From a virus (lineage: Duplodnaviria; Heunggongvirae; Uroviricota; Caudoviricetes), in IMG/VR virus record IMGVR_UViG_2563366968_000004, positions 1 through 34,224 of that record: DNA of 34,224 nucleotides; one strand, written 5' to 3'. The stretch's first letter is position 1, and the number at the start of each line of letters is the position of its first letter. Position numbers and translations under genes: made by a program. The notes beneath the pieces were generated by a model, which worked only from the letters and a program-made list of their open reading frames with translations, ran no database searches and was not told where the DNA came from. This document shows positions 7,191 to 34,224 of this stretch, piece after piece.

Positions 7191-7202
7191 ACGGGGGCCA
7201 GA

Positions 7203-9554: not shown

Positions 9555-9581
9555 TATAGTCTTTTTACAAGAAGATCGTTT

Positions 9582-9690: not shown

Positions 9691-9730
9691 ACAAACGCAT
9701 TTCTTCTGGCTGGCTGAGAGGGAACAGCCA

Positions 9731-10688: not shown

Positions 10689-10691
10689 ATA

Positions 10692-10800: not shown

Positions 10801-11162
10801 AAACAGCGATTTTCTTTATAAGGTATGTTTTGCTCATCTGGCAGACGGAGGTATTCGCTGCGGTTTGGCACGTAGCCCAGAACAGCAAAGAGTTTTACGA
10901 GACTTTTGTAAAATCCAGTGTACAAGGGCGTGACGTTTTTGAAGGAGAGACCTACGAAATTTTCGTAGTTCAAAAAATAGCCTCTGAGATGTTGTTATGC
11001 CTGTTCAGCAAACCATCCGCATAGCTGATCGCGAATCAAATTACCAATGGAGCCAGAAGCAAGGGCAGAACTGGAAAGCGCCTGCCGTGAAGAGTAATGC
11101 GACATCATAAATATAGTTTTTAGAGTCCATAAAAAACCTGTCAAAACCTGACATACAGAACG

Positions 11163-11290: not shown

Positions 11291-11464
11291 ATGGCTATTT
11301 CAGTAAAGCCAGTATTGATAAGTGAGAAGCAAATGGAAGCGATAAAGAAAATTCAGGAGGAGCAGCGTAAAAAATCAGAGGTAGGAGTTGCGCCAACGAT
11401 CCACGAAATTGCTCGGGGATTAATGGATAAGGCGCTGGCTTACACTTTAACTGGACGTGGGTAA
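11291..11464 (+). CDS. Small protein (57 aa), possibly a ribbon-helix-helix type DNA-binding protein; first gene of the cargo operon
   Basis: AAGGGG RBS 6 nt upstream of the ATG; TATAAT at 11253-11258. Absent from the ORF track (below 60 aa). Stop is 5 nt before the next ATG. Confidence 0.45.
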   Translation: MAISVKPVLISEKQMEAIKKIQEEQRKKSEVGVAPTIHEIARGLMDKALAYTLTGRG

Positions 11465-11468
11465 ATTT

Positions 11469-12935: not shown

Positions 12936-15040
12936 TGGCTAAAGCATGGAAAGATGTTATCGCCTCTCCACAGTATCAGGCGTTAGCACCAGAACAAAAA
13001 GCGCAGGCTCAGGAGCAATACTTCAATGAAGTCGTTGCCCCGAAAGCCGGAGAAAGTGTAGAGCAGGCTAAGCAGGCTTTTTATGCTGCCTATCCACTAC
13101 CATCAACGAATGCAATAGACCGATCCCAATCAGCAACTCAAAATATTCAACATACATCATCTGATAATTCTCTTGCGTCAGGGTATGCAAAGTTAGCTAC
13201 TCAGCAAAGAGAGGGGCTTGAGCGTTCAGCAGAACAGGGAGCCAGTCTTGGGGCTGCGATGCGCGATGCTATAACAGGCGAAAGCCGAATGACTCCAGAG
13301 ATGGAGAGACTGCAAAATGTCGCCTCTGCCCCAGAATTGAACTCACTAAGCATGGATGCCCTAAAGGCTGGATGGTCTCAACTTTTCGGCTCTGACGCGT
13401 CTCAGGAAAAGATTCTTCAGGGAATGGGGGCGACATTAAGGCAGGATGAGAAGGGGAATACTATCGTTTCTCTGCCATCAGGTGATTATGCCCTGAACAA
13501 GCCGGGTTTATCACCGCAAGACCTGACCTCGTTTCTTGCTAATGCGTTGGCGTTTACACCAGCGGGCAGGGCCGGAACGGTGCTGGGGGCCATAGGAAAA
13601 TCAGCAGCTACAGATTTAGCACTACAGGGAGCCACCAGCCTTGCTGGTGGAGAAGATATTGATCCGTTACAAACGGTAATTTCTGCTGGCATTGGTGGTA
13701 TTGGTAAGGGGCTGGAAAATACAGCGAGTGCGGTTTCGAGGGCTGTTCGTGGTGATATGTCGCCTGAAGCAAAGGCTGCTGTCGACTTTGCATCGGAAAG
13801 AAATCTGCCGTTAATGACCAGTGACATGCTGAAAGATAAAACCTTTATGCAGAGTCAGGCTCAGACATTAGGCGAAAGAGTTCCTTTTTTTGGAACCGGT
13901 AAGAATCGGCTGAATCAACAACAAGCACGAGAAAATTTAGTCAGAACATTTAGCGATGGTCTGGGTGGCATTTCTGATAAACAGCTTTATGAATCTGCGA
14001 CTAAAGGGCAACAAAAATTCATTGAGGCAGCAGGAAAGCGATATAACCGCATAATTGACGCTATGGGGGATACCCCTGTCGATCTCTCAAACACGGTAAA
14101 AGCTATCGACAATCAGATTGCCGTGTTAAGCCGCCCGGGCAAATCTCAGGATAGAGCCGCGGTAAAAGTCTTGCAGCAATTTAAAGACGATATCACCAGC
14201 GGACCAAATGACCTGCGTCTGGCGAGGGAAAACAGAACCGATCTTCGAAAGCGATTTATGGCGTCATCTGACACTGTTGATAAAGATACGCTCCAGAAAG
14301 CCAGCGATATTATCTACAAGGCATATACGGCGGATATGAAAAAAGCCGTAGCCAAAAATCTTGGAGCAGACGAAGCCATTAATATGGCAAGGGTTGATCG
14401 CTCATGGTCTAAATTCAATGACATGATGGGAAGAACGCGCGTTCAAAAGGCAATAGCCAGCGGCAAGGCCACGCCTGAGGATGTAACAAAACTCGTTTTT
14501 AGCCAAAGCCCATCAGAACGTTCTCAGCTTTACAGGCTTCTGGATGACAATGGTAGGCAAAACGCACGAGCAGCCATAGTTCAGAATGCTGTAGATAAGG
14601 CGACTGATCCGTCTGGAAATATCAGTGTTGAGAAGTTTATTAATGCGTTACACCGGAACAGGAAGCAATCAGCAACTTTCTTTAAAGGCGTACATGGAAA
14701 GGAACTGGACGGCGTTATTAAATACCTCAACGATACAAGACACGCGGCAAAAGCGAACGTTCAAAACTTAAATGGTCAGCAGCTTTATGGATTGTTAGTT
14801 GGTGGTGGCATCATAAACGCAGCAGTATTAGCGGGGATGCTAAAAACGGCTGCGTTTGTTGTTCCTGCTGCTGGTGCCGTAGGCGGAGCAGCGAAGGCAT
14901 ACGAAAGCCCTGTTATACGAAATGCCTTGTTACGTCTGGCAAATACGCCAAAAGGTAGCACAGCATATGACAGAGCGATCAGTACGGTCACACAATCGCT
15001 CACCAGAGTCGCACAGGCATCACAAAAAGAATCTCAATAA
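12935..15040 (+). CDS. Large Ala/Gln-rich hypothetical protein (701 aa) with C-terminal Gly/Ala-rich hydrophobic hairpin
   Basis: TAATG overlap with the upstream gene. Hydrophobic glycine-zipper segment LYGLLVGGGIINAAVLAGMLKTAAFVVPAAGAVGGAAKA at about 14783-14900; no canonical Walker A. Confidence 0.75.
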   Translation: MAKAWKDVIASPQYQALAPEQKAQAQEQYFNEVVAPKAGESVEQAKQAFYAAYPLPSTNAIDRSQSATQNIQHTSSDNSLASGYAKLATQQREGLERSAEQGASLGAAMRDAITGESRMTPEMERLQNVASAPELNSLSMDALKAGWSQLFGSDASQEKILQGMGATLRQDEKGNTIVSLPSGDYALNKPGLSPQDLTSFLANALAFTPAGRAGTVLGAIGKSAATDLALQGATSLAGGEDIDPLQTVISAGIGGIGKGLENTASAVSRAVRGDMSPEAKAAVDFASERNLPLMTSDMLKDKTFMQSQAQTLGERVPFFGTGKNRLNQQQARENLVRTFSDGLGGISDKQLYESATKGQQKFIEAAGKRYNRIIDAMGDTPVDLSNTVKAIDNQIAVLSRPGKSQDRAAVKVLQQFKDDITSGPNDLRLARENRTDLRKRFMASSDTVDKDTLQKASDIIYKAYTADMKKAVAKNLGADEAINMARVDRSWSKFNDMMGRTRVQKAIASGKATPEDVTKLVFSQSPSERSQLYRLLDDNGRQNARAAIVQNAVDKATDPSGNISVEKFINALHRNRKQSATFFKGVHGKELDGVIKYLNDTRHAAKANVQNLNGQQLYGLLVGGGIINAAVLAGMLKTAAFVVPAAGAVGGAAKAYESPVIRNALLRLANTPKGSTAYDRAISTVTQSLTRVAQASQKESQ

Positions 15041-16283: not shown

Positions 16284-17246
16284 ATGGCTGTTCCGGTTAA
16301 GGTTCATAAAGAATATGATGAACTTGTCGATTTATTGCTGTCTCGGGGTATGGATGTGCCAGATCGCGAACATGCTATCAAGAAAATCTCACAAGTAGGC
16401 TACTACCGATTATCAGGCTTTTGGTACCCCTGCCGAATCCCCCATATAACAACAGACAATATTAGAACCAGACTCGATCAGGTTCGTCCAGGTACTAATT
16501 TTCGCGCAGTATATGACCTCTATTTATTCGATAAAAATCTGCGTTTGCAGATGATGAATGCGTTAGAACGCATTGAGGTTTATGTTCGGTCAGTTATTGC
16601 TCATGAGCTTGGTAAGATATCTCCTTTAGCATATCTTGATGACTCGCTAATAAATCCAAAACACTTTAGACCACGTTCCCATGGTCGCCCAAGCGCCAGA
16701 GAAGAATGGATAAATAAACATAATGCCGAGATTGCTAAAAGTCGCGAAGACTTTATCAAATGGCATGAAAACAAGTACGAAGGTCTTCCTTTCTGGGTGG
16801 TTATTGAAGTGTGGGACTTCGGCTTAATGTCAAAGTATTATGCGATGCTAAAAGACAGCTATCGCAACAGGATACTATCTAGGCTAGGGATAGCGGCAGG
16901 CAATGGAGCTATCTTCCAAAACTGGCTTAGCGCAATGAATGTGCTAAGGAATCGGTGCGCTCACCATTCACGCATCTGGAACAAGGTCAACGAACCAAGA
17001 TTAATGCCTTTGCCAAATGAGCCGTACTTTGAACAATTAAATATGAATGATGATGCGTACGAAAGAATGTACGGAATGATCGCTGTGTTATGGTTTTTAG
17101 TGAAAAAAATTGGACCGGGATCTGACTGGATAAAAAAAGTTGCCAACCTTGTAGATAACAAGCCTAACTTACCAGGATGTAACCTGACAGCCATGGGATT
17201 ACCTGATAATAACGGTTTCCCAAGGCATTTATTTGATATTGAATAA
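16284..17246 (+). CDS. Abortive infection protein, Abi_2 family (AbiD/AbiF-like), 320 aa
   Basis: N-terminal region (LLSRGMDV..., QVGYYRLSGFWYP, VYDLYLFDKNLRLQMMNALERIEVYVRSVIAHE) matches the Abi_2 family pattern. AT-rich gene with a roughly 800 bp AT-rich leader. Confidence 0.8.
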   Translation: MAVPVKVHKEYDELVDLLLSRGMDVPDREHAIKKISQVGYYRLSGFWYPCRIPHITTDNIRTRLDQVRPGTNFRAVYDLYLFDKNLRLQMMNALERIEVYVRSVIAHELGKISPLAYLDDSLINPKHFRPRSHGRPSAREEWINKHNAEIAKSREDFIKWHENKYEGLPFWVVIEVWDFGLMSKYYAMLKDSYRNRILSRLGIAAGNGAIFQNWLSAMNVLRNRCAHHSRIWNKVNEPRLMPLPNEPYFEQLNMNDDAYERMYGMIAVLWFLVKKIGPGSDWIKKVANLVDNKPNLPGCNLTAMGLPDNNGFPRHLFDIE

Positions 17247-18740: not shown

Positions 18741-19283
18741 ATGTACCAGCTAAAGATAACCATCCGAGACAGCAAACCACCTATATGGCGGCGTGTGCTG
18801 GTTCCAGAGCAAATCCCCTTTAGTAAACTTCATGCCGTGATCCAGTTAGCTTTTGGCTGGAATGACGAACACCTGTATATGTTCGAGAAAGGGCGTAAAG
18901 GTGATCCAGGTAGCGAGTATCGCGTATGGGGTGAGGATGAAAGCATGGGTAACGCGGCAATCACGCCACTATGGGCGGCGCTCCAGAATGAGGGTGACAA
19001 GCTGGTTTACACGTATGACTTTGGCGACTGGTGGGATTGCGTCATTGTGCTGGAGAAGCAAACACACGATACGAGTAATCAGCCCATTAGCTGCCTGCGT
19101 GGGAAAGGCACCACCCCGGCGGAAAACTCAGGCGGCTTGCATGGTTACAATGAATTGCTATTACAGGCCAGAGAGTCTGATAATCCTGAGCAGGCCGAGA
19201 TCCACAATTTCCTGATGCTGGATATTGAACGCCGGGTTTACGACCTGAGCCGCATCAACGACAGATTGCAGGCTATTTACTGA
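18741..19283 (+). CDS. Plasmid pRiA4b ORF-3-like family protein (180 aa)
   Basis: N-terminal LKITIRDSKPPIWRRVLVP...FGWNDEHLYMF and the YDFGDWWD motif resemble the pRiA4b ORF-3 family; assignment from memory. Confidence 0.6.
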   Translation: MYQLKITIRDSKPPIWRRVLVPEQIPFSKLHAVIQLAFGWNDEHLYMFEKGRKGDPGSEYRVWGEDESMGNAAITPLWAALQNEGDKLVYTYDFGDWWDCVIVLEKQTHDTSNQPISCLRGKGTTPAENSGGLHGYNELLLQARESDNPEQAEIHNFLMLDIERRVYDLSRINDRLQAIY

Positions 19284-19753: not shown

Positions 19754-19777
19754 ATGGGGGTACTTTTGGGGGTATCT
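19754..19777 (+). repeat. Second copy of the ATGGGGGTACTT(A/T)TGGGGGTAT motif at the satellite/prophage junction
   Basis: 21 of 22 positions identical to 1557-1578; lies in the AT-rich gap between the last satellite gene and the lambdoid integrase. Confidence 0.4.
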
Positions 19778-19862: not shown

Positions 19863-21026
19863 TTACACATCATTAGTACCTTCCTTATTTTTTGACTGGG
19901 ACAAATTTGGGACCGATGGGTTCAGGATCGAGTCTATTTGCCGTGCGTGTTCGGTAAGGTGATTAGGTGCAAGGTGAGCATATCGACGAACCATTTCGAT
20001 AGACTCCCAGCCTCCCATTTCCTGTAACACTGACAACGGGACTCCGGCTTGAACCAGCCAGCTTGCCCAGGTGTGTCTCAAGTCGTGAAATCTGAAATCA
20101 TCAATACCAGCCCGTCTCAGCGCCGCTTTCCAGGCTGTGTTTGCGTCATACCGCATCTTCCTGACCGTTGGCGCTTTCGTTCCGTCTGGTTTGGTACAGC
20201 TTTCCTTGTACACAAATACCCAACGGTGATGATTCCCGATTTGTTTTTTCAATACGCGACATGCAGTATCATTCAGCGCAACGCCAATTGCGCGGTTTGA
20301 TTTACTCTCTTCCGGGTTTATCCATGCCACCCGGCGCTGCATGTCTATTTGTTGCCATTCAAGGTTGATGATGTTCGAGCGTCTTAAGCCTGTTGCCAGT
20401 GCAAATTCAACAACAGACTTTAATGGCTCCGGACATTCATCAATCAGCCTTTGTGCTTCATGGGGCTCCAGCCAGCGGATCCGTTTATTCTTTGGTTGAG
20501 GCACTTTAATAATTGGTGCCTTATCCAGCATTTTCCATTCACGCTCTGCGGCTCTTAGTAGGGCCTTTATAAATGAAAGATGCGTAGCCTTTGTTGCAAC
20601 GGACGCTGGTTTTGGCATGTATTCTGGAACAGGTTTCCCTTTTTTTCTGCATGCTTCTGCCCTGAGTTTCCAGTTTTCCTCATGACGCCGGTTCGTCATT
20701 TTCTGCATTGCTGAATAAATTTTTGATTCAGTAATGTCTCTTAGTTGCATTCCTGCGAAATGTTGAAGCCAGAATCCGATCCGGCTTTTGTCATCGTCCA
20801 GTGATTTTTTATGTGCTTTCTCTTCGAGCCACCTGATACACGCCTCCTCGAACGTCATATCAGGTATTTCACCAAGTTTGCTGACCCGCCATGCTTCAGC
20901 CTTTAGCTTGTCATGGAGCTCTGTCGCCTGCCTTTTGTCCTTTGTTCCAAGAGACTGTTTAAATCTTTTACCGTTCGGCAATGTGAAACTGGCGTACCAT
21001 ATTTCACCTCTGCGGAAGAGTGACAT
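19863..21026 (-). CDS. intR: Lambdoid prophage tyrosine integrase (Rac IntR-like), 387 aa
   Basis: Translation recognised as closely related to Rac-type IntR ([46 protein letters not shown]..., ...[18 protein letters not shown]...RYAHLAP). Confidence 0.9.
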
Positions 21027-21253: not shown

Positions 21254-21558
21254 TATTTCACCTCTTGCTGTGTCATTGTTGAAAAATGGATACCAGCTCG
21301 TTGCTGCCAGACGATCCAACCGAGAGTCATATCCCATGCCATGTATTCGTTATCGCCGTTTTTTGCTCTCCGACGATCTACTAAGTCACCGAAACGCTTT
21401 TCCATGAATAATTCATAGGCTTCGCGTTCATCTGGCTCTACTTCCAGAGATACGAGTGCGATTTCATAAGCACGGCGCTCAATATCGTCTCGAACCTCTA
21501 GGCTGCTGATTCGTTCTTTGATTTCTTTAATCAGTTCTTTATTGGTAAATGTGGTCAT
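21253..21558 (-). CDS. Hypothetical early protein (101 aa), Rac YdaC-like
   Basis: Position between xis and the next early genes; resemblance to small Rac early proteins is tentative. Confidence 0.5.
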   Translation of the reverse strand: MTTFTNKELIKEIKERISSLEVRDDIERRAYEIALVSLEVEPDEREAYELFMEKRFGDLVDRRRAKNGDNEYMAWDMTLGWIVWQQRAGIHFSTMTQQEVK

Positions 21559-21920
21559 TATGCTCCAGCCTCCGGTGCTTTTGGCATTACTGCCCAGTGA
21601 GTGATATTGACGTTTTCAAGGTCCCCGACCTGAAATGTCCACTGCCATTCTCCGGTTTCTTTTTGTCCCCAGGTGTACCAGAGAGAACGCCAGCCAATCA
21701 GCCAGCCTTCTCCATTAGCATCAAATAACAGAACACTTTCATTTGCTGGTGGCAGTTCAGCTGACACTGGTATTATTTTGTTTTCCAGTGCCGCACATTT
21801 AGCTTCAAGCGCGTCGAATTTACGTACCAGGTACTCAGCATTTGTTTCGTTCACTTTCAGATCTCGCGGTACACATTTCCCGCGAAGAAACCCTTCCATT
21901 TCGAAAACATTCATGCGCAT
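21558..21920 (-). CDS. DUF551-like phage protein (120 aa)
   Basis: C-terminal W-rich motif (WYTWGQKETGEWQWTF...THWAVMP) typical of DUF551; ATGA overlap with the downstream gene. Confidence 0.55.
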   Translation of the reverse strand: MRMNVFEMEGFLRGKCVPRDLKVNETNAEYLVRKFDALEAKCAALENKIIPVSAELPPANESVLLFDANGEGWLIGWRSLWYTWGQKETGEWQWTFQVGDLENVNITHWAVMPKAPEAGA

Positions 21921-22447
21921 TTGCGTAACTCCGATAAATCGTTAAAACGTTCCATAAACATCCCGTAGGCATGACCCGGTGCCAGTGGAATCACGTTGAA
22001 CATCTCTGTTGCCGGGATGCCTTCCAGTACAGGCCAGAAAGAGCCATCATCAAGCCCGAGATCGCGGCGTTCGGTTGCCAGCATGATGAGATCGGCATAT
22101 TTCACGGGTGTACTCATAACTGGGGGTAACCCGTATTTCTCACGGATTACGGCGTCTATTTTTTCTTCCATCCGTTTATAGTCAGGAAGAAGGCGTTTCA
22201 GTGGTGCGGGAATGTCCTGGCAATACGCTTCTGTTGCATCATGCATTAACGCTTCAAAAGCAAATTCCTGCGGCACCAGCTGGCTGCAAAGAACCGCATG
22301 TTGGGCGACGCTGTAGAAGTGCGAAAGATGACCGGCAAAGCGACAGATATTTGAAAGGGAAACCGCGATATCGTTAATATCGATGTCGTCTTTATTTATC
22401 TTGTCATAATAAAAATGCTTCCCGGAAAAAGTTTTAATAAATGACAT
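21911..22447 (-). CDS. HD-domain phosphohydrolase (YfdR-like 5'-deoxynucleotidase), 178 aa from ATG 22447
   Basis: HD motif in ...FEALMHDATEAYCQDIP...; GGAG RBS 8 nt upstream of the internal ATG (MSFIKTF...). Matches CPS-53 YfdR in size and sequence. Confidence 0.8.
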   Translation of the reverse strand: MSFIKTFSGKHFYYDKINKDDIDINDIAVSLSNICRFAGHLSHFYSVAQHAVLCSQLVPQEFAFEALMHDATEAYCQDIPAPLKRLLPDYKRMEEKIDAVIREKYGLPPVMSTPVKYADLIMLATERRDLGLDDGSFWPVLEGIPATEMFNVIPLAPGHAYGMFMERFNDLSELRKCA

Positions 22448-22574
22448 TTTGTTCTCCACGTATATGCACTGCACCGCGCTGAATTCTGGTAAAAGGAAGC
22501 CCTCACCATCCGGTGATTATTGAGTTAATTACGTTTCCATAAATGCCCCCGCAGGGGCATTTGCAGTAATGAAA

Positions 22575-23399
22575 TCAGGCGGTGAAAGTACCAATAAAGG
22601 TTTCTACTTTGCTGTCTTTGAATTTCTCAACAAGCAGATCACGAAATTCGTTAGCCATTTCTTCCTGCACCGCTTCCAGCTGAATAATGCGCAGAACCAG
22701 TACAGGACGATCGCCAGTGATAATGCTGAGGCGTAATTTAAACGGACGTTCTTTCAGACCTTCAAACGGAACGCATTTAAATTCAAATGTCACTGGCATA
22801 ATGTCTTTGGTCTTCGCTTCGACAGACTCCATCAGGGAGCGTTTGCCGCTGAAGTCATTATCTTCAAAATCAGCGGTCTGGTTCGCTTCAATTGTGATTT
22901 TACGGATCGCCGCAGCCGCTTTGGTTGCCTGAATGGCGTCACCATTAGCATCAAAGCCCACAAGGTAGTCGGCCCAGTCTTCAATCCATTCTGCCAGTGA
23001 CTTCTGGGAGTTACGCTCGCCGTTAACAGACAACAGGGCAGAGAACGGTGCTGTCTTTTTCAGTTTGAGAGTGGCGGTGTTATCTGCGTGACCTGGTTCA
23101 TCAATAGTACCCAGGTTAAGCACACTGACGGCTCGCATATTATCGGCATCGATAAAGCAGCGGGTGCCTTCATCTGCAAGATCTTTAGAATAACGGGTAA
23201 AGTCATCGATGCTGGCAGTGGAAAGCGCACCACGGAAACGGAAGCGATTTAAATTAAATTTTTCCAGATCATGAATGCGGAAATTCTCAGGCAATGCCAC
23301 AGCATCGGCACCAATCTTACTGATAATTTCATTAACACCCTGAGCAGAAATAAGGGCATGGATTTGATTAATTGCGGTTGCGTCTAAGTTCTGAGACAT
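22575..23399 (-). CDS. DUF2303 family protein (YfdQ-like), 274 aa
   Basis: Translation recognised as YfdQ-like; same gene order as the CPS-53 yfdP-yfdQ-yfdR cluster. Confidence 0.75.
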
Positions 23400-23464
23400 A
23401 ATAAGTCCTCACTATATAAAGATATTCAGTGATGAGATAAATAATCAGTTTATTAAGAACGATA

Positions 23465-23827
23465 TTAATGACCTGCTGCGCGTAGTTTTCCGTCAGGTTC
23501 ACCGGCAAGAGTCAGTAATTGTCCCTGGTCTTCCTGCAGAATAGTCAGGCGACCACCGCGATTGACATACATCGGCGTTTCGGTGGTGTCTTCTTCGGAA
23601 ATTTTCCCGCGGTTAGTTGGGCGAACATATGAGAGTTTGTGTTTGATTTTCACACGGTTCTCATCAAACGGTTCGATTTCCAGGTTGAGCGAGACCTTAC
23701 CTTTGGTTTTCGTGTTCATCACACCGGAAGCGACTTCACTGAGAACAGCGCCGATTTTGGTTTCAAATACGCCGCCGTCCAGCTCCCCGATAAATGCCTG
23801 CACATCAGTACTGCGTTCGCTAGCCAT
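23465..23827 (-). CDS. YfdP-like protein (120 aa from ATG 23827)
   Basis: GAGGAG RBS upstream of the internal ATG (MASERSTDVQAFIGELDGG...); the longer ORF to 24058 has an implausible N-terminus. Confidence 0.65.
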   Translation of the reverse strand: MASERSTDVQAFIGELDGGVFETKIGAVLSEVASGVMNTKTKGKVSLNLEIEPFDENRVKIKHKLSYVRPTNRGKISEEDTTETPMYVNRGGRLTILQEDQGQLLTLAGEPDGKLRAAGH

Positions 23828-24529
23828 TTTGCTGCTCCTCATCATATCGACCCTGCAAGGTCGGTTGGTTTCTCCACAAAACAGAGAAGAACACCTGCGG
23901 TGACTGCCGCCCGGATGGATTGGGTTATGAGCCCGTCGTCCGGTGATTCTCTTCTCTGTTTTGTAAAAAGAGCGGTACCAGCCGGAAGCAAGGGTACAAA
24001 CTGGTACCGCCAAAGCAGTGGCTGTTGTGGTGGGGTTGTCACTCAGGCGTATGGTCAACCTGACAATCCGGTGCCCTCAACGGGGAAAGAGTAACCCCGC
24101 CATACTTACCGCCGCGCCATTTCGCGGATTACCACAACGCTGAGAGCACTTAGCCAGTTACGGCACCACACTTTGTCGCGGCTCCATAAATGCCCTCATC
24201 GTTGCACCCTGGTCTCTTCCCAGGCGTCAAACCGAATCGCCACGCTGGTTAGGCGTCTTATCAGCATCATCATTGACTTGCACATTCCGGCTACCTGGTT
24301 TGTTTGCCCGAGCAAGGAGTGGATTGTCCCCTTTAACGTCCCCAGACCGCTAACGACGCATGTGCCATACGCCGTGTTACAACCAAATTTTGTTAGTACC
24401 TTGTTTGTTTGTCTGGAAAGAAAGATAAAATGAAGTTGCGCATTATGCAAGTGTTTTTGTTGCGAGATATGCAATTTAAAGGGTAATGAAAAGCCACCTT
24501 TGGGTGGCTAATTGATGAGGAGGTAAGGG

Positions 24530-25222
24530 TTAATTGTGTCGCTTAAGGGTTTGTGACTGGCTGATTAAGACCTTTCCAAAGACCATAAACCGGTGTTCAT
24601 TTTCGCTGGTAATTCCCCATTCACGGTAAATCTGGTTATCAGAAATCACCAGTAGTTTGTCAGGTATCATTTGCAGTCGTTTGACATAAATTTTATCATC
24701 AAAACCAAATACATAGATACCATCTCCATCAAACTGATTGATACTGACATCAACGAAGATGAGATCTCCTGGCTCAATGGTTGGACACATACTGTCCCCA
24801 CGAACGTTGATAACTTTAATGTGATTGGCTGGCCGTCCGCCAAACATCGATACAGCATTATCAGTTCTGTATTCAATGGCATGAATCACATCAATGACAT
24901 CACCGCCCTGGATAAGGCCATTTCCCGCACTGGCACTGACATCCAGCATTTCAATACGGAATACATCCTTCACCTGCGCAACATCCTCACTAATACTGTT
25001 TTTACATACAGTATTACTTTTGACGTCTGAGGTAAAGAGATCAGCAATATCAACACCTAAGCTCCTGGCAATATTACTCAGGGCTTGTTCAGTGAATTGT
25101 TTCTGCTTACCTGTTTCCAGGCGTGAGATATTCGCCGCATCCACTCCTATTGCTTCAGCGAGATCGGCGATTTTCATGTTCTTCGCCTGGCGAAGTTGTC
25201 TGACTCGGTTTCCTATGTTCAT
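24530..25222 (-). CDS. cI: CI-like prophage repressor (N-terminal XRE HTH + C-terminal S24 LexA-like peptidase), 230 aa
   Basis: HTH (MKIADLAEAIGVDAANISRLETGKQ), S24 motifs (RGDSMCPTIEPGDLIFVD, Ser nucleophile; YVKRL, Lys); divergent from the cro-like gene. Confidence 0.85.
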   Translation of the reverse strand: MNIGNRVRQLRQAKNMKIADLAEAIGVDAANISRLETGKQKQFTEQALSNIARSLGVDIADLFTSDVKSNTVCKNSISEDVAQVKDVFRIEMLDVSASAGNGLIQGGDVIDVIHAIEYRTDNAVSMFGGRPANHIKVINVRGDSMCPTIEPGDLIFVDVSINQFDGDGIYVFGFDDKIYVKRLQMIPDKLLVISDNQIYREWGITSENEHRFMVFGKVLISQSQTLKRHN

Positions 25223-25319
25223 GCGTTTATTACATTTCTTTATTGCGCGTTAAGCAAATCAACTTGCGCAAAATATTTGCGTGAAATAATATGCTCATCA
25301 CGCAATATGTGGAGGTCAT
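25223..25319. promoter_or_regulatory. Immunity-region operators/promoters (TTGCG...CGCAA palindromes between cI and cro)
   Basis: CGCAAAATATTTGCG and TTGCGTGA-N13-TCACGCAA inverted repeats read directly between the divergent repressor genes. Confidence 0.5.
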
Positions 25320-25580
25320 ATGCAATCACCATTACGGAATGTGCGTAAGGCGCACGGATTTACTTTGCAGCATGTTGCTGCTGGCGTTCAGGTCAATCCA
25401 GCGACGCTGAGTCGTATTGAAAGACTGGAACAAATTCCATCTATCGATCTTGCAGAACGTCTGGCCAATTTTTTTAAGGGTGAAATCAGCGAAATGCAGA
25501 TTCTTTATCCGGCACGTTTTCAATCTAGCCAAAACCAGAATGGGTTTAAACCACAGGAACAGGAGGTAAGCCGTGGGTAA
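25320..25580 (+). CDS. cro: Cro-like HTH regulator (86 aa)
   Basis: GGAGG RBS 5 nt upstream; HTH (FTLQHVAAGVQVNPATLSRIE); divergent from cI. Confidence 0.65.
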   Translation: MQSPLRNVRKAHGFTLQHVAAGVQVNPATLSRIERLEQIPSIDLAERLANFFKGEISEMQILYPARFQSSQNQNGFKPQEQEVSRG

Positions 25581-26130
25581 TCATCACTGGAAAGTGGAAA
25601 AACAGCCTGAGTGGTACGTGAAAGCTGTCAGAAAAACTATCGCGGCGTTGCCGGGGGGTTACGCTGAAGCTGCTGAGTGGCTGGATGTAACAGAGAACGC
25701 ATTATTTAACCGCCTTCGTGCCGATGGCGATCAGATTTTCCCGCTGGGATGGGCAATGATTTTACAACGTGCTGGTGGCACTCACTTCATTGCCGACGCT
25801 GTGGCGCAGTCTGCAAATGGCGTCTTTGTGTCTCTTCCTGACGTCGAGGATGTGGACAATGCCGATATTAACCAGCGTTTACTGGAAGTCATTGAACAGA
25901 TCGGCAGTTATTCAAAACAGATTCGTTCGGCAATCGAAGACGGTGTAGTGGAACCGCATGAGAAGACAGCAATTAACGACGAGCTGTACCTCTCAATTTC
26001 GAAGCTGCAGGAGCATGCAGCACTTGTCTACAAAATTTTTTGCGTTTCAGAAAGTAATGACGCCCGCGAGTGTGCAGCTCCGGGCGTCGTGGCGTCGATT
26101 GCTTCTGGTTGTGGAGAAACTAACGCATGA
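25573..26130 (+). CDS. Phage regulatory protein, CII-like (185 aa)
   Basis: Position directly after cro; weak resemblance to CII/CP76-type regulators. Assignment tentative. Confidence 0.45.
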
Positions 26131-26465
26131 ACAGTTTAACAACACACTACCGTCGCTCGCAACTGATTGCGCTTCCTGTACCGGGTGGAAAAGCGAAGGT
26201 GGAGTATTGCTATGCAGTAAATGTACCAGGTGACAGGGAAATTGTAACCCACAGCTTTGCTGAGTGGGCTGTGGGAGATTTCAACCGGCAGAAGGAGACA
26301 GTCCTTTGCGACAAGTTAACCGCTGGTTCAAAGATCACTACGGAGTGCCCGTCAGAGTCATTCGTTGGGAGCCGGAAACACAACGGGTTATCTACCTCCG
26401 TGAAGGCTATGAGCATGAGTGCTTCAGCCCGCTCGAACAGTTTCGTCGTAAATTCAGGGAAATAG
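26127..26465 (+). CDS. Hypothetical ORF (112 aa); 3' two-thirds overlap the DUF4222 frame
   Basis: ATGA overlap with the upstream gene suggests a real start, but the C-terminal half is Ser-rich and overlaps a better ORF in another frame. Confidence 0.3.
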
Positions 26466-26485
26466 AGGTCGGTCATGAGCACTAA
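26264..26485 (+). CDS. DUF4222 family protein (73 aa from GTG 26264; possible TTG start at 26306)
   Basis: [45 protein letters not shown] matches the family pattern; paralog of the satellite ORF at 4726-4908. Confidence 0.5.
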
Positions 26486-27416
26486 ATTAACCGGCTATGT
26501 ATGGGATGGTTGCGCTGCGTCAGGCATGAAATTATCCAGCGTGGCAATTATGGCCCGCCTGGCTGATTTCAGTAATGACGAAGGTGTGTGCTGGCCATCA
26601 ATTGAAACTATTGCCCGTCAGATTGGCGCGGGGATGAGTACCGTCAGAACGGCTATCGCACGGCTGGAAGCAGAAGGCTGGTTAACGCGTAAGGCGCGTC
26701 GCCAGGGTAACCGCAATGCGTCGAATGTTTATCAGCTTAACGTTGCGAAGCTTCAGGCAGCGGCATTTTCTCAACTGTCAGATTCTGACCCGTCAAAATC
26801 TGACGCATCAAAATCTGACACGTCAAAATTTGATGCGTCGAAATCTGGCAAAAAAGCGGGTTTTCACCCGTCAGAATCTGGCGGGGATCCGTCAGTAAAA
26901 TCAAAACATGATCCGTCAGATAAAAAACCTTCTCGTCCGGACGCTTCGCAACCGGACACGCAGACGGCTGAACAGGATTTTTTAACTCGCCATCCTGATG
27001 CGGTTGTATTCAGCCCTAAAAAGCGCCAGTGGGGAACGCAGGATGATTTGACCTGCGCACAGTGGCTCTGGAAAAAAATCATTGCCCTGTACGAGCAGGC
27101 CGCCGAATGTGACGGCGAGGTGGTTCGTCCCAAAGAACCGAACTGGACAGCATGGGCAAACGAAATTCGCCTGATGTGTGTGCAGGATGGTCGTACTCAC
27201 AAACAAATCTGCGAGATGTACAGCCGCGTCAGCCGCGATCCGTTCTGGTGCCGTAACGTGCTCAGCCCGTCGAAGTTGCGGGAAAAATGGGATGAGCTTT
27301 CCCTGCGCTTATCGCCGTCCGTCAGCACGCACACAGAAAAACGTGAAGACCCGTACTTCAAAGCCAGTTACGACAACGTGGACTACAGCCAGATCCCGGC
27401 AGGATTCAGGGGGTGA
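26475..27416 (+). CDS. Replication initiation protein (N-terminal HTH, low-complexity linker encoded by iterons, C-terminal DnaT-like domain), 313 aa
   Basis: N-terminal winged-HTH-like region; internal DNA iterons encode an SK/SD-rich linker; C-terminal domain resembles DnaT-like phage replication proteins. Position equals lambda O. Confidence 0.7.
   Translation: MSTKLTGYVWDGCAASGMKLSSVAIMARLADFSNDEGVCWPSIETIARQIGAGMSTVRTAIARLEAEGWLTRKARRQGNRNASNVYQLNVAKLQAAAFSQLSDSDPSKSDASKSDTSKFDASKSGKKAGFHPSESGGDPSVKSKHDPSDKKPSRPDASQPDTQTAEQDFLTRHPDAVVFSPKKRQWGTQDDLTCAQWLWKKIIALYEQAAECDGEVVRPKEPNWTAWANEIRLMCVQDGRTHKQICEMYSRVSRDPFWCRNVLSPSKLREKWDELSLRLSPSVSTHTEKREDPYFKASYDNVDYSQIPAGFRG
26780..26930 (+). 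repeat. Origin-like iteron array inside the replication gene (about 15-bp unit CGTCAAAATCTGAC(G/A), 4 good and about 4 degenerate copies)
   Basis: Tandem copies at 26791, 26806, 26821 and 26836, with degenerate copies at 26868, 26889 and 26914, followed by an A-rich stretch. Confidence 0.5.
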
Positions 27417-27418
27417 TC

Positions 27419-27907
27419 ATGAGTCTTTTGAATGACGTTCAGAAATTCATTGAAGCCCATCCGGGCTGTACTTCCGGAGACATTGCGGATGCTTTTGCAG
27501 GTTACTCACGGCAGCGCGTTCTGCAGTCAGCAAGCAAGTTACGTCAGAGTGGGCGTGTGGCTCACCGTTGTGAAGGAGATACACGCAGACATTTCCCGCG
27601 CCTGACTGAGAGAGCGCAGGAGCCGGAACCACAATCTGTTCGTGAAACCAGACCTGTGCGCAATTTCTATGTCGGCACTAACGACCCCCGGGTGATTTTG
27701 TGCCTGACCCGCCAGGCGGAAGAACTGGAGTCCAGGGGCTTATACCGTCGTGCTGCAACGGTGTGGATGGCGGCATTCCGTGAAAGCCACTCCCAGCCAG
27801 AACGAAACAATTTTCTGGCGCGTCGTGAACGGTGTTTACGGAAAAGCAGTAAGCGGGCTGCATCAGGTGAAGAGTGGTACCTCTCAGGGAATTACGTGGG
27901 GGCTTAA
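27419..27907 (+). CDS. Protein with C-terminal PerC-like domain (162 aa from ATG 27419)
   Basis: C-terminal QAEELESRGLYRRAATVWMAAF parallels the PerC signature at 17856-18137; start is coupled to the upstream stop. Confidence 0.6.
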   Translation: MSLLNDVQKFIEAHPGCTSGDIADAFAGYSRQRVLQSASKLRQSGRVAHRCEGDTRRHFPRLTERAQEPEPQSVRETRPVRNFYVGTNDPRVILCLTRQAEELESRGLYRRAATVWMAAFRESHSQPERNNFLARRERCLRKSSKRAASGEEWYLSGNYVGA

Positions 27908-28559
27908 TGAGTAATAAATATTGCCAGGCGCTGGTGGAGCTGCGGAACAAACCAGCCCATGAACTGAAGGCAGTGGGCGATCAGTGGCGCACGCCGGACA
28001 ACATTTTCTGGGGAATTAACACCCTGTTTGGCCCGTTTGTTCTGGATCTGTTCACTGACGGTGATAACGCCAAATGTGCTGCGTATTACACGGCGGAAGA
28101 CAACGCGCTGGCGCATGACTGGTCAGAACGCCTTGCGGAGCTTAAAGGTGCTGCCTTTGGTAATCCCCCATACAGCCGCGCCAGTCAGCATGAGGGGCAA
28201 TACATCACCGGCATGCGTTACATCATGAAGCATGCCAGTGCCATGCGTGATAAAGGCGGGCGCTATGTTTTCCTGATCAAAGCTGCCACCAGCAAGTGTG
28301 GTGGCCGGAAGATGCAGATCATATTGCTTTTATTCGCGGGCGTATTGGTTTTGAACTGCCTGCCTGGTTTATCCCGAAGGATGAGAAGCAGGTGCCGACA
28401 GGCGCTTTCTTCGCTGGTGCTATTGCTGTTTTCGACAAGACCTGGAAGGGACCGGCAATCAGCTACATCGGGCGCGATGAACTTGAGGCATGTGGTGAGG
28501 CCTTTCTGGCGCAGGTTCGCCAGCAGGCAGAAAAACTGGTCAGGGAGATGGCGGCATGA
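27907..28559 (+). pseudogene. Phage DNA N6-adenine methyltransferase (Dam-type, NPPY motif), apparently frameshifted near 28290-28298
   Basis: N-terminal part in frame 1 (MSNKYCQALVELRNKP...FGNPPYSRAS...RYVFLIKAATS) and C-terminal part in another frame (VWWPEDADHIAFIRGRIGFELPAWFIPKD..., 28296-28559). The frame-1 ORF runs on to 28824 with an Arg-rich tail. Confidence 0.55.
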
Positions 28560-28882
28560 CGACGTTAACTCAATGCCAGCAGCAGGTGCTGGATATGCTG
28601 ATTTCTTATCAGAAAGAACGTGGCTTCCCGCCAACCAATCAGGAGGTGGCAACCATGCTGGGATACCGTTCAGTGAATGCAGCGGTGGAGCATCTTCGCG
28701 CACTGGAGAAAAAAGGCGTCATCACGATAAAGCGTGGCGTGGCCCGGGGCATCACGCTTCATACCGCGGTGAAGGACGACGACAGCGAGGCGGTCGGGAT
28801 TATCCGCTCACTGCTTGCCGGTGAGGAAAACGCAAGGCTGCGTGCAGCCCACTGGTTACATGAGAGGGGCCTGAAAGTATGA
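28556..28882 (+). CDS. LexA-N-terminal-like DNA-binding domain protein (108 aa)
   Basis: QQQVLDMLISYQKERGFPPTNQEVATMLGYRSVNAAVEHLRALEKKGVI resembles the LexA winged-helix DNA-binding domain; ATGA overlap with the upstream gene. Confidence 0.6.
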   Translation: MTTLTQCQQQVLDMLISYQKERGFPPTNQEVATMLGYRSVNAAVEHLRALEKKGVITIKRGVARGITLHTAVKDDDSEAVGIIRSLLAGEENARLRAAHWLHERGLKV

Positions 28883-29268
28883 AGCTGATCCTGCCTTTTC
28901 CGCCCAGCGTGAACACGTACTGGCGACACCCCAACAAAGGGGCGTTTGCTGGTAAGAGCCTGATAAGCGCGGCGGGGCGAAAATTCCAGAGCGCGGCGTG
29001 CGCAGCAATAGTTGAGCAGTTACGTCGTCTGCCGAAACCAACGTCGGCACCTGCTTCAGTGGAGATCGTGTTGTTTCCTCCGGATAACCGGATCCGCGAT
29101 CTGGACAACTATAACAAGGCGCTGTTTGACGCCCTGACCCACGCGGGGGTGTGGGAAGACGACAGTCAGGTGAAAAGAATGCTGGTGGAGTGGGGACCGG
29201 TTATCCCGGAAGGGAAGGTCGAGATCACTATCAGTAAGTACGAGAAAACGGCGGGTGCAGCTGCCTGA
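28879..29268 (+). CDS. rusA: Holliday junction resolvase RusA (129 aa)
   Basis: Pattern PPSVNTYWRH...RDLDNYNKALFDALTHAGVWEDDSQV matches RusA; typical nin-region location. Confidence 0.85.
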   Translation: MKLILPFPPSVNTYWRHPNKGAFAGKSLISAAGRKFQSAACAAIVEQLRRLPKPTSAPASVEIVLFPPDNRIRDLDNYNKALFDALTHAGVWEDDSQVKRMLVEWGPVIPEGKVEITISKYEKTAGAAA

Positions 29269-29287
29269 TTAAGAGGAGAAACGAAGT

Positions 29288-30097
29288 ATGAATAATCTGA
29301 TGGTCATTGATGGTATTGAAGTTCGTCGTGATGCTTATGGGCGTTACAGCCTGAACGATCTGCATCGCGCAGCAGTAGCATCTGGTGCAAATGCCAGAAC
29401 CAAGGAGCCAGGAAAGTTTCTTTCCAGCCAACAAACTGTTGAGCTTGTTCATGAATTAACCAACACCCAGAATTTGGGTGTTGACCCGGTGAGCGTGATT
29501 CATGGGGGAAATGAACGGGGAACGTATGTCTGTAAGGAACTGGTGTATGCCTATGCAATGTGGATCAGCCCGTCATTCCATCTGAAGGTGATCCGTACTT
29601 TCGATATGGTAACCAGCGCGCCGGAAAAGTTATCCGGACAGGCTGCTGACAAGATGCAGGCTGGCGTGATTCTGCTGGACTTTATGCGCCGGGAGTTAAA
29701 TCTGTCTAACTCATCTGTGCTTGGGGCCTGTCAGAAACTCCAGGAGGCTGTTGGCTTACCGAATCTGGCACCGCGCTATGCCATTGATGCACCTGCTGAC
29801 GCGCCTGATGGCTCAAGCCGCCCCACGCTGTCGCTGAGTGCACTGCTGAAGCAGTATGGTATCCGCCTGACGGCTAATCAGGCATATCACCAGATGGCGA
29901 AGCTGGGGATCGTTGAACAACGCGAACGATACAGCCGTACCGCGATTAACAACATCAAAAAATTCTGGTCGCTGACCGCGAAAGGCTGCATGTTCGGCAA
30001 GAACATCACCAGTCCTGCAAATCCGCGCGAGACGCAGCCGCATTTCTTCGAATCCCGATTTCCTGAGCTGTTAAAGCTGCTCGATACCGTTCATTGA
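29288..30097 (+). CDS. KilA-N domain protein (269 aa)
   Basis: N-terminal KilA-N pattern (YSLNDLHRAA...GTYVCKELVYAYAMWISPSFHLKV). Confidence 0.75.
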   Translation: MNNLMVIDGIEVRRDAYGRYSLNDLHRAAVASGANARTKEPGKFLSSQQTVELVHELTNTQNLGVDPVSVIHGGNERGTYVCKELVYAYAMWISPSFHLKVIRTFDMVTSAPEKLSGQAADKMQAGVILLDFMRRELNLSNSSVLGACQKLQEAVGLPNLAPRYAIDAPADAPDGSSRPTLSLSALLKQYGIRLTANQAYHQMAKLGIVEQRERYSRTAINNIKKFWSLTAKGCMFGKNITSPANPRETQPHFFESRFPELLKLLDTVH

Positions 30098-30098
30098 G

Positions 30099-31094
30099 GT
30101 GACTGTGAGAGCACTACTGACCCCTGAAATTGCCCCGCGTATGGGGATCGTATTGTTCAGGCCAGGTTCAGAGCTGATGCCCCTGTTTATGCAGGGGCGT
30201 GTCCTGCTGGAGCCTGAGCCGGAACGTTATTCATCTTTTGCCAGTGGTGCCGTTCCGGCTGCATCACAACCGCTGGCGGATGATCCTGCCGTTCGGGCCG
30301 TGTTCCGCAATGAGGCAGTGATCCGTCGTGCTGGTGGCGTGGAATGTCTTGAAAGCTGGTTACTTCGTGAAAAAGGCTGCCAGTGGCCTCATTCCGACTG
30401 GCACAGCGAGAACATGACCACAATGCGACACGCGCCGGGCGCAATCCGTCTGTGCTGGCACTGCGATAACCAACTGCGCGATCAGTTCACGGAACGGCTG
30501 GAATCAATGGCAACGGATAACTGTGCCCGCTGGGTGTTGTCTGTTGTGCGTCGGGATCTCGGTTTTGATGACAGTCACGTTGTGACAATGCCGGAACTGT
30601 GCTGGTGGCTGATTCGTAATGATCTGGCGGATGCCTTACCGGAAAGTGCAGCCCGTAAGGCACTGAGATTACCGAAGCCTGTTGTGCCGTCTGTCACCCG
30701 GGAAAGTGACCTGGTGCCTTCGGTTCCTGCCACCAGCATCATCCAGGATAAAGCGAAAAAGGTGCTGGCGCTGAAAGTGGATCCGGAGTCGCCGGACTCT
30801 TTTATGTTACGCCCAAAACGTCGCCGCTGGGTTAATGAAAAGTACACGCGATGGGTTAAGACGCAGCCGTGCGCATGTTGTGGAAAACCTGCTGATGATC
30901 CCCACCACCTGATAGGCCACGGTCAGGGTGGAATGGGGACAAAAGCGCATGACCTCTTTGTGTTGCCTTTGTGCAGAAAGCATCACGACGAGCTGCATGC
31001 GGATAATGTGGCATTCGAAGAGAAGTATGGCTCCCAGCTGGAGCTGATATTTCGTTTTATCGATCGTGCGCTGACGATTGGTGTGCTGGCCTGA
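30099..31094 (+). CDS. DUF968 family protein with C-terminal HNH-like Cys/His motif (YdfU-like), 331 aa
   Basis: C-terminal [21 protein letters not shown]...CRKHHDELH; GTG start at 30099, possible alternative ATG at 30141. Confidence 0.7.
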
Positions 31095-31111
31095 TTTTGT
31101 GGAGAAAGTTG

Positions 31112-31495
31112 ATGCGTGATATTCAGATGGTTCTTGAGCGTTGGGGAGCGTGGGCGGCTAATAATCATGAAGATGTGACCTGGTCGTCCATTGCCGCCGG
31201 TTTTAAGGGATTAATTCCTTCAAAAGTAAAATCTCGCCCGCAATGTTGTGACGATGACGCGATGATCATTTGCGGGTGCATGGCCCGTCTGAAAAAGAAC
31301 AACAGCGATTTGCACGATTTATTAGTAGATTATTATGTAGTCGGTATGACATTCATGTCACTGGCAGGTAAGCATTGCTGCTCTGATGGTTATATCGGGA
31401 AAAGGTTACAAAAAGCTGAGGGCATAATTGAAGGGATGTTAATGGCATTAGATATCCGGTTAGAGATGGATATCGTTGTTAATAACTCTAATTAA
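31112..31495 (+). CDS. Q: Late-gene antiterminator Q (127 aa from ATG 31112)
   Basis: [18 protein letters not shown]... recognised as lambdoid Q (phage 21/82/DLP12 quuD-like); GGAG RBS 7 nt upstream. Confidence 0.8.
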
Positions 31496-31527
31496 TATGC
31501 CAATTGTTTACTAAAAATTATTAAAAA

Positions 31528-31545
31528 TGGGGCGTTGAGACGCCC
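31528..31545 (-). terminator. Candidate intrinsic terminator for the porin gene (GGGGCG-loop-CGCCCC followed by a U-run on the minus strand)
   Basis: On the minus strand the hairpin is followed by ATTTTTAATAATTTTT; it lies about 140 bp downstream of the porin stop. Confidence 0.4.
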
Positions 31546-31684
31546 CCAAAAATAAAGGGTAATATATAACAGAAGGTTTATATAGTTAGAAGCAAGGTTG
31601 TGCTTCTAAAGGAAGTGGCTTGAGGGAGCCACTTATATGTTGGGGAGGCAACGCCTCCCGCAACATATCTTTTTCGTAATCAGA

Positions 31685-32767
31685 TTAGAACTGGTAAACC
31701 AGACCTACAGCAACGATGTCATCAGTATCAATACCAGCTGTTTTGGTAAACTTACTATCGTCAATTAAGTTGATTTTGTAATCAACAAAAGTGGACATGT
31801 TTTTATTAAAGTAGTAAGTAGCACCGACATCGACATACTTGACTAAGTCTCGGTCACCATGAACACCAAGGTCTTTACCTTTTGACTGAAGGTAAGCAAC
31901 AGATGGGCGCAGACCGAAGTCAAACTGATATTGTGCTACTGCTTCAAAGTTTTGTGCTTTGTTTGCAATATGGTTATTACCAAAAACGGTCATATTCTGA
32001 GTTTCAGAATATGTGGTAGCCAGATAGATATTGTTCGCATCATATTTCAGGCCTGCAGCCCATACTTCCGCATTTTTGCCGGAGGCATTGAATTTGCTCT
32101 TACCATAGGCGACCTGACCGTCAGTGCGATCTGATTTAGCATAGGTTGCACCCACGCCGAATCCTTCATACTCATAAGTAGTGGAGAAACCGAAACCATC
32201 ACCATTGGCTTCAGTTACGTCAGTGCGGTCATTTTTACCCTGATACTGAGCAGCAAAGTTCAGGCCATCGACCAGACCAAAGAAGTCGTTGTTACGATAA
32301 GTTGCAACACCAGTAGTGCGACCAGTCATGAACACATCTGTTTGGGTCCAGGTATCACCACCGAATTCTGGCAGGACGTCAGTCCACGCACCGATGTCGT
32401 ATGCTACACCGTAGTTACGGCCGTAATCGATTGAGCCGTAATCACCAAATTTCAGGCCTGCAAATGCAAGACGGGTTTTGTCTTTGGAAGAACCTTGAGA
32501 TTCAGCGCGGTTGCCTTTGAATTCATATTCCCACTGACCGAAACCAGTCAGTTGATCGTTGATTTGGGTTTCACCTTTGAAGCCAAGACGGGCATAAGTA
32601 GTATCACCATCATCTGCATCATTAGAGGAGAAGTAGTGCTTAGCATTAACTTTCCCGTACAGATCCAGCTTGTTACTGTCTTTATTATAAATTTCAGCTG
32701 CCTGAGCAGACATCGCCATCAGTACTGATGCAGCTACAGCAGAAATTGCCACTGTTAATTTTTTCAT
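31685..32767 (-). CDS. nmpC: Outer-membrane porin, OmpC/OmpF/PhoE family (phage-borne NmpC/Lc-like), 360 aa
   Basis: Signal peptide ([23 protein letters not shown]), general-porin motifs and C-terminal ...GLVYQF. Opposite strand between Q and the lysis genes, as in DLP12 and phage PA-2. Confidence 0.9.
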
Positions 32768-33196
32768 CGTGAGCCCTTTTTTTTGAACTATTATTAAAAA
32801 ATGATGTCACTGCGCGATAAATATTCATCTAATCAATGTGATTATTTCAAGATGTAAGTTTTGGTTTCTCGTTTGATTTGTGAAGTAGATCTCTATTTTT
32901 ATCTGAACTTTTTTCTATCGAATCCTATTCATAGCTCTTGGCTGAATAAAAATAAATCTATTAGCCAATTTATACTAACGGTTGTTATTTATAAGTGCTC
33001 TATAATTTGAAGGTTCAATTTAAATCGGCTAAAAATAACACTGGAAATTATTTGTTGGTTATTTGTTGAGATTTGCTTATGTATTTGTAGTGGTGTTTTC
33101 AATACTCGGTAGCATTCTCGCAAATATCATTTAGTGGTTTACGTACGTAAAAAATTGGTTATGCTGTTAAGAGTGGTTACTTCGTCACACAGCTTA

Positions 33197-33230
33197 AACC
33201 CGCCGTCGAGCGGGTTTTTCCATTTTTTGA
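33197..33230 (+). terminator. Intrinsic terminator (AAACCCGC-loop-GCGGGTTT plus T-run); candidate tR' of the late operon
   Basis: Hairpin followed by TTCCATTTTTT, read directly, about 110 bp upstream of the holin start. Confidence 0.5.
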
Positions 33231-33340
33231 GTCTCGATATTAGCTGATAACCCAATACCTGAGTTATTCACTGACTTCGAGTCTGTTACGTTTCGTAGTA
33301 TTCCCTCAATTTACACCCGCTTTGTCTGCGAGGTGGGGTT

Positions 33341-33556
33341 ATGAAATCCATGGATAAGTTAACAACGGGTGTCGCCTATGGCACCTCAGCAGGTAGTGCC
33401 GGGTACTGGTTTTTACAGCTGCTAGATAAAGTCACGCCCTCACAGTGGGCGGCAATTGGAGTGCTGGGTAGCCTGGTATTTGGCCTGCTGACGTACCTGA
33501 CAAACCTTTATTTCAAGATTAAAGAAGATAAGCGTAAGGCTGCGAGAGGTGAATAA
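33341..33556 (+). CDS. essD: Holin, lambdoid class II (phage 21 S / EssD-like), 71 aa
   Basis: Two TM helices plus charged C-terminus; the stop overlaps the endolysin start. Confidence 0.85.
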
Positions 33557-33821
33557 TGTCGCCATCATTACGCAAGGCTGTAGCAGCTGCTATTGGTGGT
33601 GGGGCTGTTGCCATAGCGTCTGTGCTCATCACTGGTCCGAGTGGTGACGATGGTCTGGAAGGTGTCAGCTACATACCATATAAAGATATTGTTGGTGTAT
33701 GGACTGTATGTCACGGGCATACAGGAAAAGACATCATGCTCGGTAAAACGTATACCAAAGCAGAATGCAAAGCACTCTTGAATAAAGACCTTGCCACTGT
33801 CGCCAGACAAATTAACCCGTA
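33556..33821 (+). pseudogene. rrrD: SAR endolysin (RrrD / phage 21 R-like lysozyme) truncated after about 89 codons by IS1
   Basis: N-terminal SAR domain and start of the lysozyme domain end with ...QINPYIEV at 33821; the reading frame then runs into IS1 terminal sequence. Confidence 0.7.
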
Positions 33822-34224
33822 CATCGAAGTCGGTAATGACTCCAACTTATTGATAGTGTTTTATGTTCAGATAATGCCCGATGACTTTGTCATGCAGCTC
33901 CACCGATTTTGAGAACGACAGCGACTTCCGTCCCAGCCGTGCCAGGTGCTGCCTCAGATTCAGGTTATGCCGCTCAATGCGCTGCGTATATCGCTTGCTG
34001 ATAACGTGCAGTTCTCCCTTCAGGCGTGATTCATAAAGCGGCCAGCCATCCGTCATCCATACCACGACCTCAAAGGCCGACAGCAGGCCCAGAAGACGCT
34101 CCAGCGTGGCCAGCGTGCGTTCACCGAATACGTGCGCAACAACCGTCCTCCGTATCCTGTCATACGCGTAAAACAGCCAGCGCTGGCGCGATTTAGCCCC
34201 GACATAGCCCCACTGTTCGTCCAT
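33822..34224 (-). mobile_element. IS1 insertion sequence, partial (runs off the window end)
   Basis: Begins with the IS1 terminal inverted repeat GGTAATGACTCCAACTTATTGATAGTG at 33822 and contains the insB 3' portion. Confidence 0.85.
33847..34224 (-). CDS. insB: IS1 transposase InsB, C-terminal 125 codons (partial, 5' end outside the window)
   Basis: Translation [22 protein letters not shown]...[15 protein letters not shown] recognised as InsB. Confidence 0.8.

Follow-up and report, generated by a model that had tools for sequence, protein, structure and literature searches.

The methyltransferase gene at 27907-28559 of the window, by which we mean the whole stretch of 34,224 nucleotides that was analysed, is very probably a genuine, vertically inherited pseudogene that arose through loss of one G in the codon for Glu130. 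Profile search assigns the gene to family TIGR01712/PF05869, the phage N-6-adenine-methyltransferases, and the intact gene product is predicted to be an orphan phage DNA adenine methyltransferase of 217 aa. A full-length match to the family profiles is obtained at the DNA level, across two frames, and the (D/N)PPY motif IV that is required of the family is present in the form NPPY (AAT CCC CCA TAC, 28162-28173, plus strand, by direct translation). A single uninterrupted ORF for the whole TIGR01712/PF05869 domain is absent from the window copy. Judged from its sequence, the locus, in an E. coli prophage, is a pseudogene of this family rather than a functional member of it. The deletion has already been annotated elsewhere and is an ordinary instance of decay in a prophage gene.

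The 5' part of the pseudogene (27907-28293, plus strand) holds codons 1-129 in the original frame. The piece read in the 27907 frame matches positions 3-100 of the 169 positions of PF05869 (E 1.8e-29) and positions 1-100 of the 165 positions of TIGR01712, where it scores 156.3 bits against a cut-off of 97.05. The 3' part (28296-28559, plus strand) holds codons 131-217 and the stop codon (28557-28559) in the -1 frame and shows up as a GTG-initiated ORF of 87 aa, which matches positions 102-167 of PF05869 and 103-165 of TIGR01712 (81.3 bits); an intact homologue covers positions 1-165 of TIGR01712 with 255.6 bits. A preliminary description had put an N-terminal methyltransferase part with the NPPY motif in the 27907 frame and a C-terminal part in another frame from about 28296 to 28559, and the profile matches agree with it on both counts. 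Its estimate that the first part makes up two-thirds of the protein is slightly generous, as 129 of 217 codons amount to 59%.

Beyond the break, the original frame continues out of register from 28294 to 28824 (plus strand), giving in the ORF list a read-through tail of 176 codons with its stop at 28822-28824. This tail overlaps the downstream LexA-like gene, taking in its start and the greater part of its length. Its translation has an Arg content of 15%, compared with 5% in the genuine part, and profile search gives no Pfam match past residue 130 of the 27907 frame, so that the Arg-rich tail to 28824 which the preliminary description thought implausible is indeed a string of 176 residues without homology. 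No relative was found by sequence search of the PDB (best E 0.75), and a literature search by PF05869 and by the RefSeq product name returned nothing specific to the gene.

The gene is part of an operon. The upstream neighbour, a PerC/YfdN family gene (27413-27907, plus strand; PF06069, named from the RefSeq annotation of homologous loci), ends in a TAA that overlaps the methyltransferase ATG at 27907 (TAATG). The downstream neighbour is a gene with a LexA DNA-binding domain (28556-28882, plus strand; PF01726). Its ATG shares bases with the stop codon of the original methyltransferase frame (ATGA), and it has its own AGGGAG 8 nt upstream. A RusA Holliday-junction resolvase gene (28879-29268, plus strand; PF05866) comes next in the same operon. 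Within its lambdoid prophage, the methyltransferase gene belongs to the replication/nin region.

The position of the lesion is given by DNA alignment with three intact phage homologues, in which the window lacks a G between 28293 (C) and 28294 (A), in the context CCAGC[G]AAGTG. The missing G breaks the Glu130 codon GAA, and the junction without it reads CCAGCAAGTG (within 28280-28310). An alignment of 94 alleles recovers the same gap column. The single-base indel that had been suspected near 28290-28298 is therefore real in the alignment and can be assigned to one base. Megablast finds 42 homologues in phage records at 95-99.5% identity and, among the matches listed, every homologue spans 654 bases, against 653 in the window. 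Those phage records annotate one methyltransferase CDS here, and their gene order is O, PerC/YfdN, methyltransferase, LexA-like, RusA, KilA-N, DUF968, Q.

Intact members of TIGR01712/PF05869 include URC08972.1 (217 aa, from phage vB_EcoM-689R6), WCJ00146.1 (phiSTEC1575-Stx2k) and BAT32394.1 (Stx2a_1447). The window gene resembles the intact phage homologues in its DNA (98-99.5% identity over the whole gene), its neighbourhood and its NPPY motif, but differs in being one G short in codon 130, so that the 217-aa protein cannot be encoded. When its two pieces are joined they rebuild a 217-aa protein that is 99% identical to the homologue of Escherichia phage vB_EcoM-689R6. The sole substitution, E22A, lies in the 5' piece, the codon for Glu130 is broken, and the 3' piece is 100% identical over residues 131-217. 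A two-piece match of this kind to an intact protein is far beyond chance.

A single-base indel is also the typical form of an assembly error, and the preliminary description had offered sequencing or assembly error as one of its options, according to which the real genome would keep the G and an intact 217-aa gene. The distribution of the deletion makes this extremely unlikely. The 80-bp junction region occurs in 1,730 records of a RefSeq set of 5,426 complete E. coli genomes; 1,728 of these (~99.9%) have the intact single-frame junction and two have the deletion. The two carriers, E. coli YJ6 from Myanmar and ETEC6 from Bangladesh, are complete genomes, and PGAP labels both loci ‘phage N-6-adenine-methyltransferase, frameshifted’ with a pseudogene flag (HXS64_RS17475 in YJ6, NZ_AP023235.1; FNW97_RS02675 in ETEC6, NZ_CP041627.1). 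Beyond these two genomes from different countries, the 36-nt deletion junction is matched exactly by two contigs of IMG/VR and three from metagenomes, which come from different projects. The intact junction is present in at least 120 IMG/VR contigs. The deletion junction was not found among the GTDB species representatives, a negative that carries no weight as the set has one genome per species.

The 3' remnant gives a further handle on the distribution, as an 87-aa ORF is expected as a separate gene call only where the upstream frame is broken. The exact 87-aa C-terminal product is recorded on 325 contigs (NCBI, ENA, Logan), and the deletion junction is present in all ten assemblies fetched from the records of this ORF, eight of which are otherwise clean. 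One assembly, GCA_000350885.1, is 100% identical on contig KB732375.1 (85593-97856) to window 22296-34224, with 11.9 kb compared. Two others, L138 (GCA_020556595.1) and L139 (GCA_020556585.1), show 11-14 gap openings when 11.5 kb are aligned with the window, and many of their gene calls are in fragments. They look typical of uncorrected long-read assemblies and are unsuited as independent support for single indels; the many other indels and broken genes that they carry in this region are what an explanation by error would lead one to expect.

The deleted G is surrounded by unique sequence, AGC[G]AAG, and is not part of a homopolymer; there are no runs of five or more bases within 120 nt of it, the nearest being at 28165 and 28531, and in over 1,700 other assemblies with this context the G was called correctly. 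With the deletion recurring across RefSeq, IMG/VR, metagenomes and further assemblies, and with no homopolymer at the site, error can be excluded for practical purposes. Pseudogenisation, which the preliminary description had listed first and had applied to a putative anti-restriction methyltransferase, is supported by the homologue alignment and by the identical deletion in many assemblies.

In the inherited pseudogene, translation from 27907 would yield 129 genuine residues, including a VLDLF stretch and NPPY, followed by 176 unrelated ones. VLDLF is a candidate for a motif-I-like AdoMet-binding sequence. The 305-codon shifted product is most likely inactive, as it is without the final 40% of the conserved domain, and the 3' part would be an untranslated remnant, its GTG having no ribosome-binding site.

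Some full-length active enzyme could nevertheless be made if ribosomes changed frame at the break, either by programmed -1 frameshifting, which had been thought the less likely option from the start, or by low-level spontaneous slippage. A shift by -1 is indeed what would be needed, and with the -1 frame open from 28254 there is an overlap zone of 43 nt ahead of 28296. The zone does not have the sequence expected of a frameshift site: there is no X XXY YYZ slippery heptamer at 28254-28300, and the only one in the ORF, CCCGGGG at 28743, is far downstream. A 7-bp inverted repeat, GCCACCA...TGGTGGC (28285-28306), flanks the deleted G, which sits in its 8-nt loop. As a hairpin, however, the repeat is no better than shuffled sequence on folding (z = -1.69), and it encloses the site, whereas a stimulatory structure would be downstream. 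Any tie between the inverted repeat and the deletion is speculative. The two-frame layout is moreover a rare derived state, confined to the two carriers among the 1,730 RefSeq records, which excludes a conserved feature; almost all copies are single ORFs, and members of the deletion lineage have lost the 5' end of the gene to an IS element. Recoding at this site is accordingly hard to credit.

The same can be said of a split enzyme, in which the N-terminal catalytic fragment and a separately translated 87-aa fragment would together form an active methyltransferase. Both halves are still open, the second begins with a GTG at 28296 directly after the break, and gene callers do call the 87-aa ORF. 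Ahead of this GTG, where the sequence is AAGCTGCCACCAGCAA, there is no Shine-Dalgarno-like element, and the N-terminal product would be burdened with its unrelated 176-residue tail. Homologues organised as two separate functional genes were looked for: in the 45 inspected of 587 phage records the homologue is one continuous aligned piece and never two genes. Two relatives (L137 and L007) are entirely without the 5' half. A working enzyme in two parts is very unlikely here.

The history of the allele can be read from its relatives, and is consistent with an inherited pseudogene. The window allele is 100% identical to the YJ6 and ETEC6 alleles over 653 bp, the deletion included. Over the early region (~21,500-32,500, ~11 kb) the window differs from YJ6 and ETEC6 at 10-12 positions, and the flanks diverge sharply. 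The prophages of YJ6 and ETEC6 are at the tRNA-Arg/DLP12 locus (argU in YJ6) and have an intD integrase, in contrast to the window, which has an SfIV-like integrase beside elements at tRNA-Thr. The deletion allele is consequently found in at least two prophage/integration contexts, argU/DLP12 in YJ6 and the SfIV-like integrase in the window. The G was probably lost in an ancestor of the early-region module, and the deletion has since been carried, partly by recombination, into many E. coli strains.

Among the 94 distinct alleles that were aligned, those with the deletion are mutual nearest neighbours, a clustering that fits a single origin. In one allele, L009, the deletion is on a partly different haplotype, with a 3' patch of third-codon-position variants that is found also in intact alleles. 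The patch suggests recombination after the deletion or, possibly, a second independent origin. A recurrent hotspot was considered and rejected, as the deletion alleles cluster together and the 3' SNP patch of L009 is common among intact alleles. The extra 1-bp gap that L009 and L011 seemed to have is an artefact of the alignment end, where a mosaic boundary lies (29248). The deletion aside, the window allele is only two substitutions from the nearest intact allele and thus has no accumulated-mutation signature of long neutrality; by this measure the deletion allele is young.

The prophages that host the deletion have other signs of decay as well, and so do relatives in its lineage. L137 and L007 have an IS3-family element in place of window 26815-28013, with loss of the first 107 nt of the gene, and in L141 the LexA-like gene is truncated. 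Independently, 112 IMG/VR copies with the intact junction include four other unique single-base indels and one nonsense mutation. These lesions (in L036, L073, L080, L128 and L037) are 1-bp deletions at the window-equivalent positions 27993 and 28437, insertions of a T at ~28050 and ~28327, and a single premature stop codon. Some of the five may be draft-assembly errors. With ~5 of 112 copies broken by other lesions, loss of the methyltransferase gene is commonplace in prophages.

That hundreds of contigs carry the allele might indicate tolerance of the loss, or even an advantage in it, rather than simple decay. Selection might have acted on inactivation of the methyltransferase or on altered translation across the LexA-like start, and so have spread the allele to 325 contigs and at least two contexts. 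The frameshift does abolish the ATGA stop/start overlap with the LexA-like gene, and in the deletion allele ribosomes in the shifted frame would run on past it to 28824. Any polar effect on the LexA-like gene is probably modest, since the gene has its own AGGGAG ribosome-binding site. The allele is at a frequency of ~0.1% of copies in complete genomes, its spread is accounted for equally well by clonal hitch-hiking in a successful lineage, and the other independent null alleles are all singletons. Adaptive loss is on these grounds unlikely. Still less likely is that the frameshift is a retained regulatory or functional variant, with expression of the downstream LexA-like and RusA genes altered by ribosomes that read the 305-codon frame over the LexA-like start, or with the 129- or 87-residue fragment functional. 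Such a variant, if true, could explain why the allele has persisted in different prophage contexts and on contigs numbering in the hundreds.

The left end of the window (1-11000) starts in chromosomal sequence, with a 417-aa ORF of the aldehyde dehydrogenase family (1-1254, proA-like), followed by tRNA-Thr(CGU) at 1369-1444 and then directly by a P4-like satellite island. The island has an integrase (1610-2824), AntA- and Ash-domain proteins, isrK (5283-5359), a C4 antisense RNA (5384-5471) and a primase (7203-9554) with Zn-ribbon, Toprim and DUF5906 domains. A 342-aa ORF at 4902-5930 shares its strand with the isrK and C4 RNA genes and overlaps both. The one Pfam match in this ORF, to Ash, begins at residue 124, and the 5' part of the ORF is therefore probably non-coding. 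Further to the right are P22-type ejection-protein genes without head or tail genes (Inj_translocase, 11457-12935; a 701-aa ORF, 12935-15040), an Abi_2 abortive-infection-like gene (16284-17246) and a PRiA4_ORF3 gene (18741-19283). The segment 11457-19635 seems to be what is left of a prophage with defence-type cargo; it separates the P4-like island from the lambdoid prophage.

The integrase gene of the lambdoid prophage (19863-21026, minus strand) is a mosaic. The part above 20758 matches the integrase of the YJ6 and ETEC6 prophages, which is of the intD type, and the 71 differences from that integrase are concentrated in 20758-21000. Below 20758, the C-terminal part resembles the integrase of Shigella phage SfIV (98.8%), and everything leftward is unlike the sequence in YJ6 and ETEC6. 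The 22-nt sequence ATGGGGGTACTT[A/T]TGGGGGTAT is present as a direct repeat at 1557-1578 and 19754-19775, 18.2 kb apart and in each case adjoining an integrase gene, and may be related to att or arm sites.

At the right end, an OmpC/NmpC-like porin gene (31685-32767, minus strand; Porin_1, E 1.9e-151), which is annotated ompC in the RefSeq relatives, sits between the Q antiterminator gene (31097-31495) and the lysis genes. The lysozyme gene (33556-34224 region) is cut by IS1 to 118 aa, compared with 165 aa in relatives. The IS1 ORF (DDE_Tnp_IS1) is at 33847-34224 on the minus strand, and similarity to other prophages ends at 33832. With its lysozyme gene cut short, the window prophage is defective in lysis too.

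Methyltransferases that are switched off by a frameshift are also known from phase-variable systems, or ‘phasevarions’, which the window gene resembles in this one respect. Phase variation works through a simple-sequence or homopolymer tract. The window gene is unlike the phasevarions in that its deleted base is in the unique sequence AGC[G]AAG with no tract of five or more bases nearby.

A second comparison is with M.EcoPA8orf6770P, an MT-A70 methyltransferase of Stx phages that is a 16S rRNA methyltransferase (PMC10810198). Like the window gene, it is a prophage gene that is annotated as a DNA adenine methyltransferase and is disrupted in some strains, there by IS629 (PMC10810198). It differs in belonging to the MT-A70 family, in its DPPW motif, in its location in the phage genome and in needing a partner subunit. 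A relation of the window gene to this rRNA methyltransferase (PMC10810198) is ruled out by the difference in family, MT-A70 with DPPW, and in locus. The Dam homologues of STEC prophages, M.EcoVT2Dam and M.EcoGV, are reported to target GATC (PMC6602927). If orthology and family membership are assumed, the intact form of the window gene may, by extension from these two enzymes, have the same GATC specificity.

The importance of the deletion beyond annotation is very small. In practice, the window copy should be labelled a pseudogene and left out of predictions of strain methylomes or of restriction protection by prophages. The shared deletion is a handy lineage marker for the prophage early-region module in E. 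coli, and the locus illustrates ordinary prophage decay, with a frameshift in the methyltransferase gene, an IS1 in a lysis gene and IS-mediated deletions in relatives.
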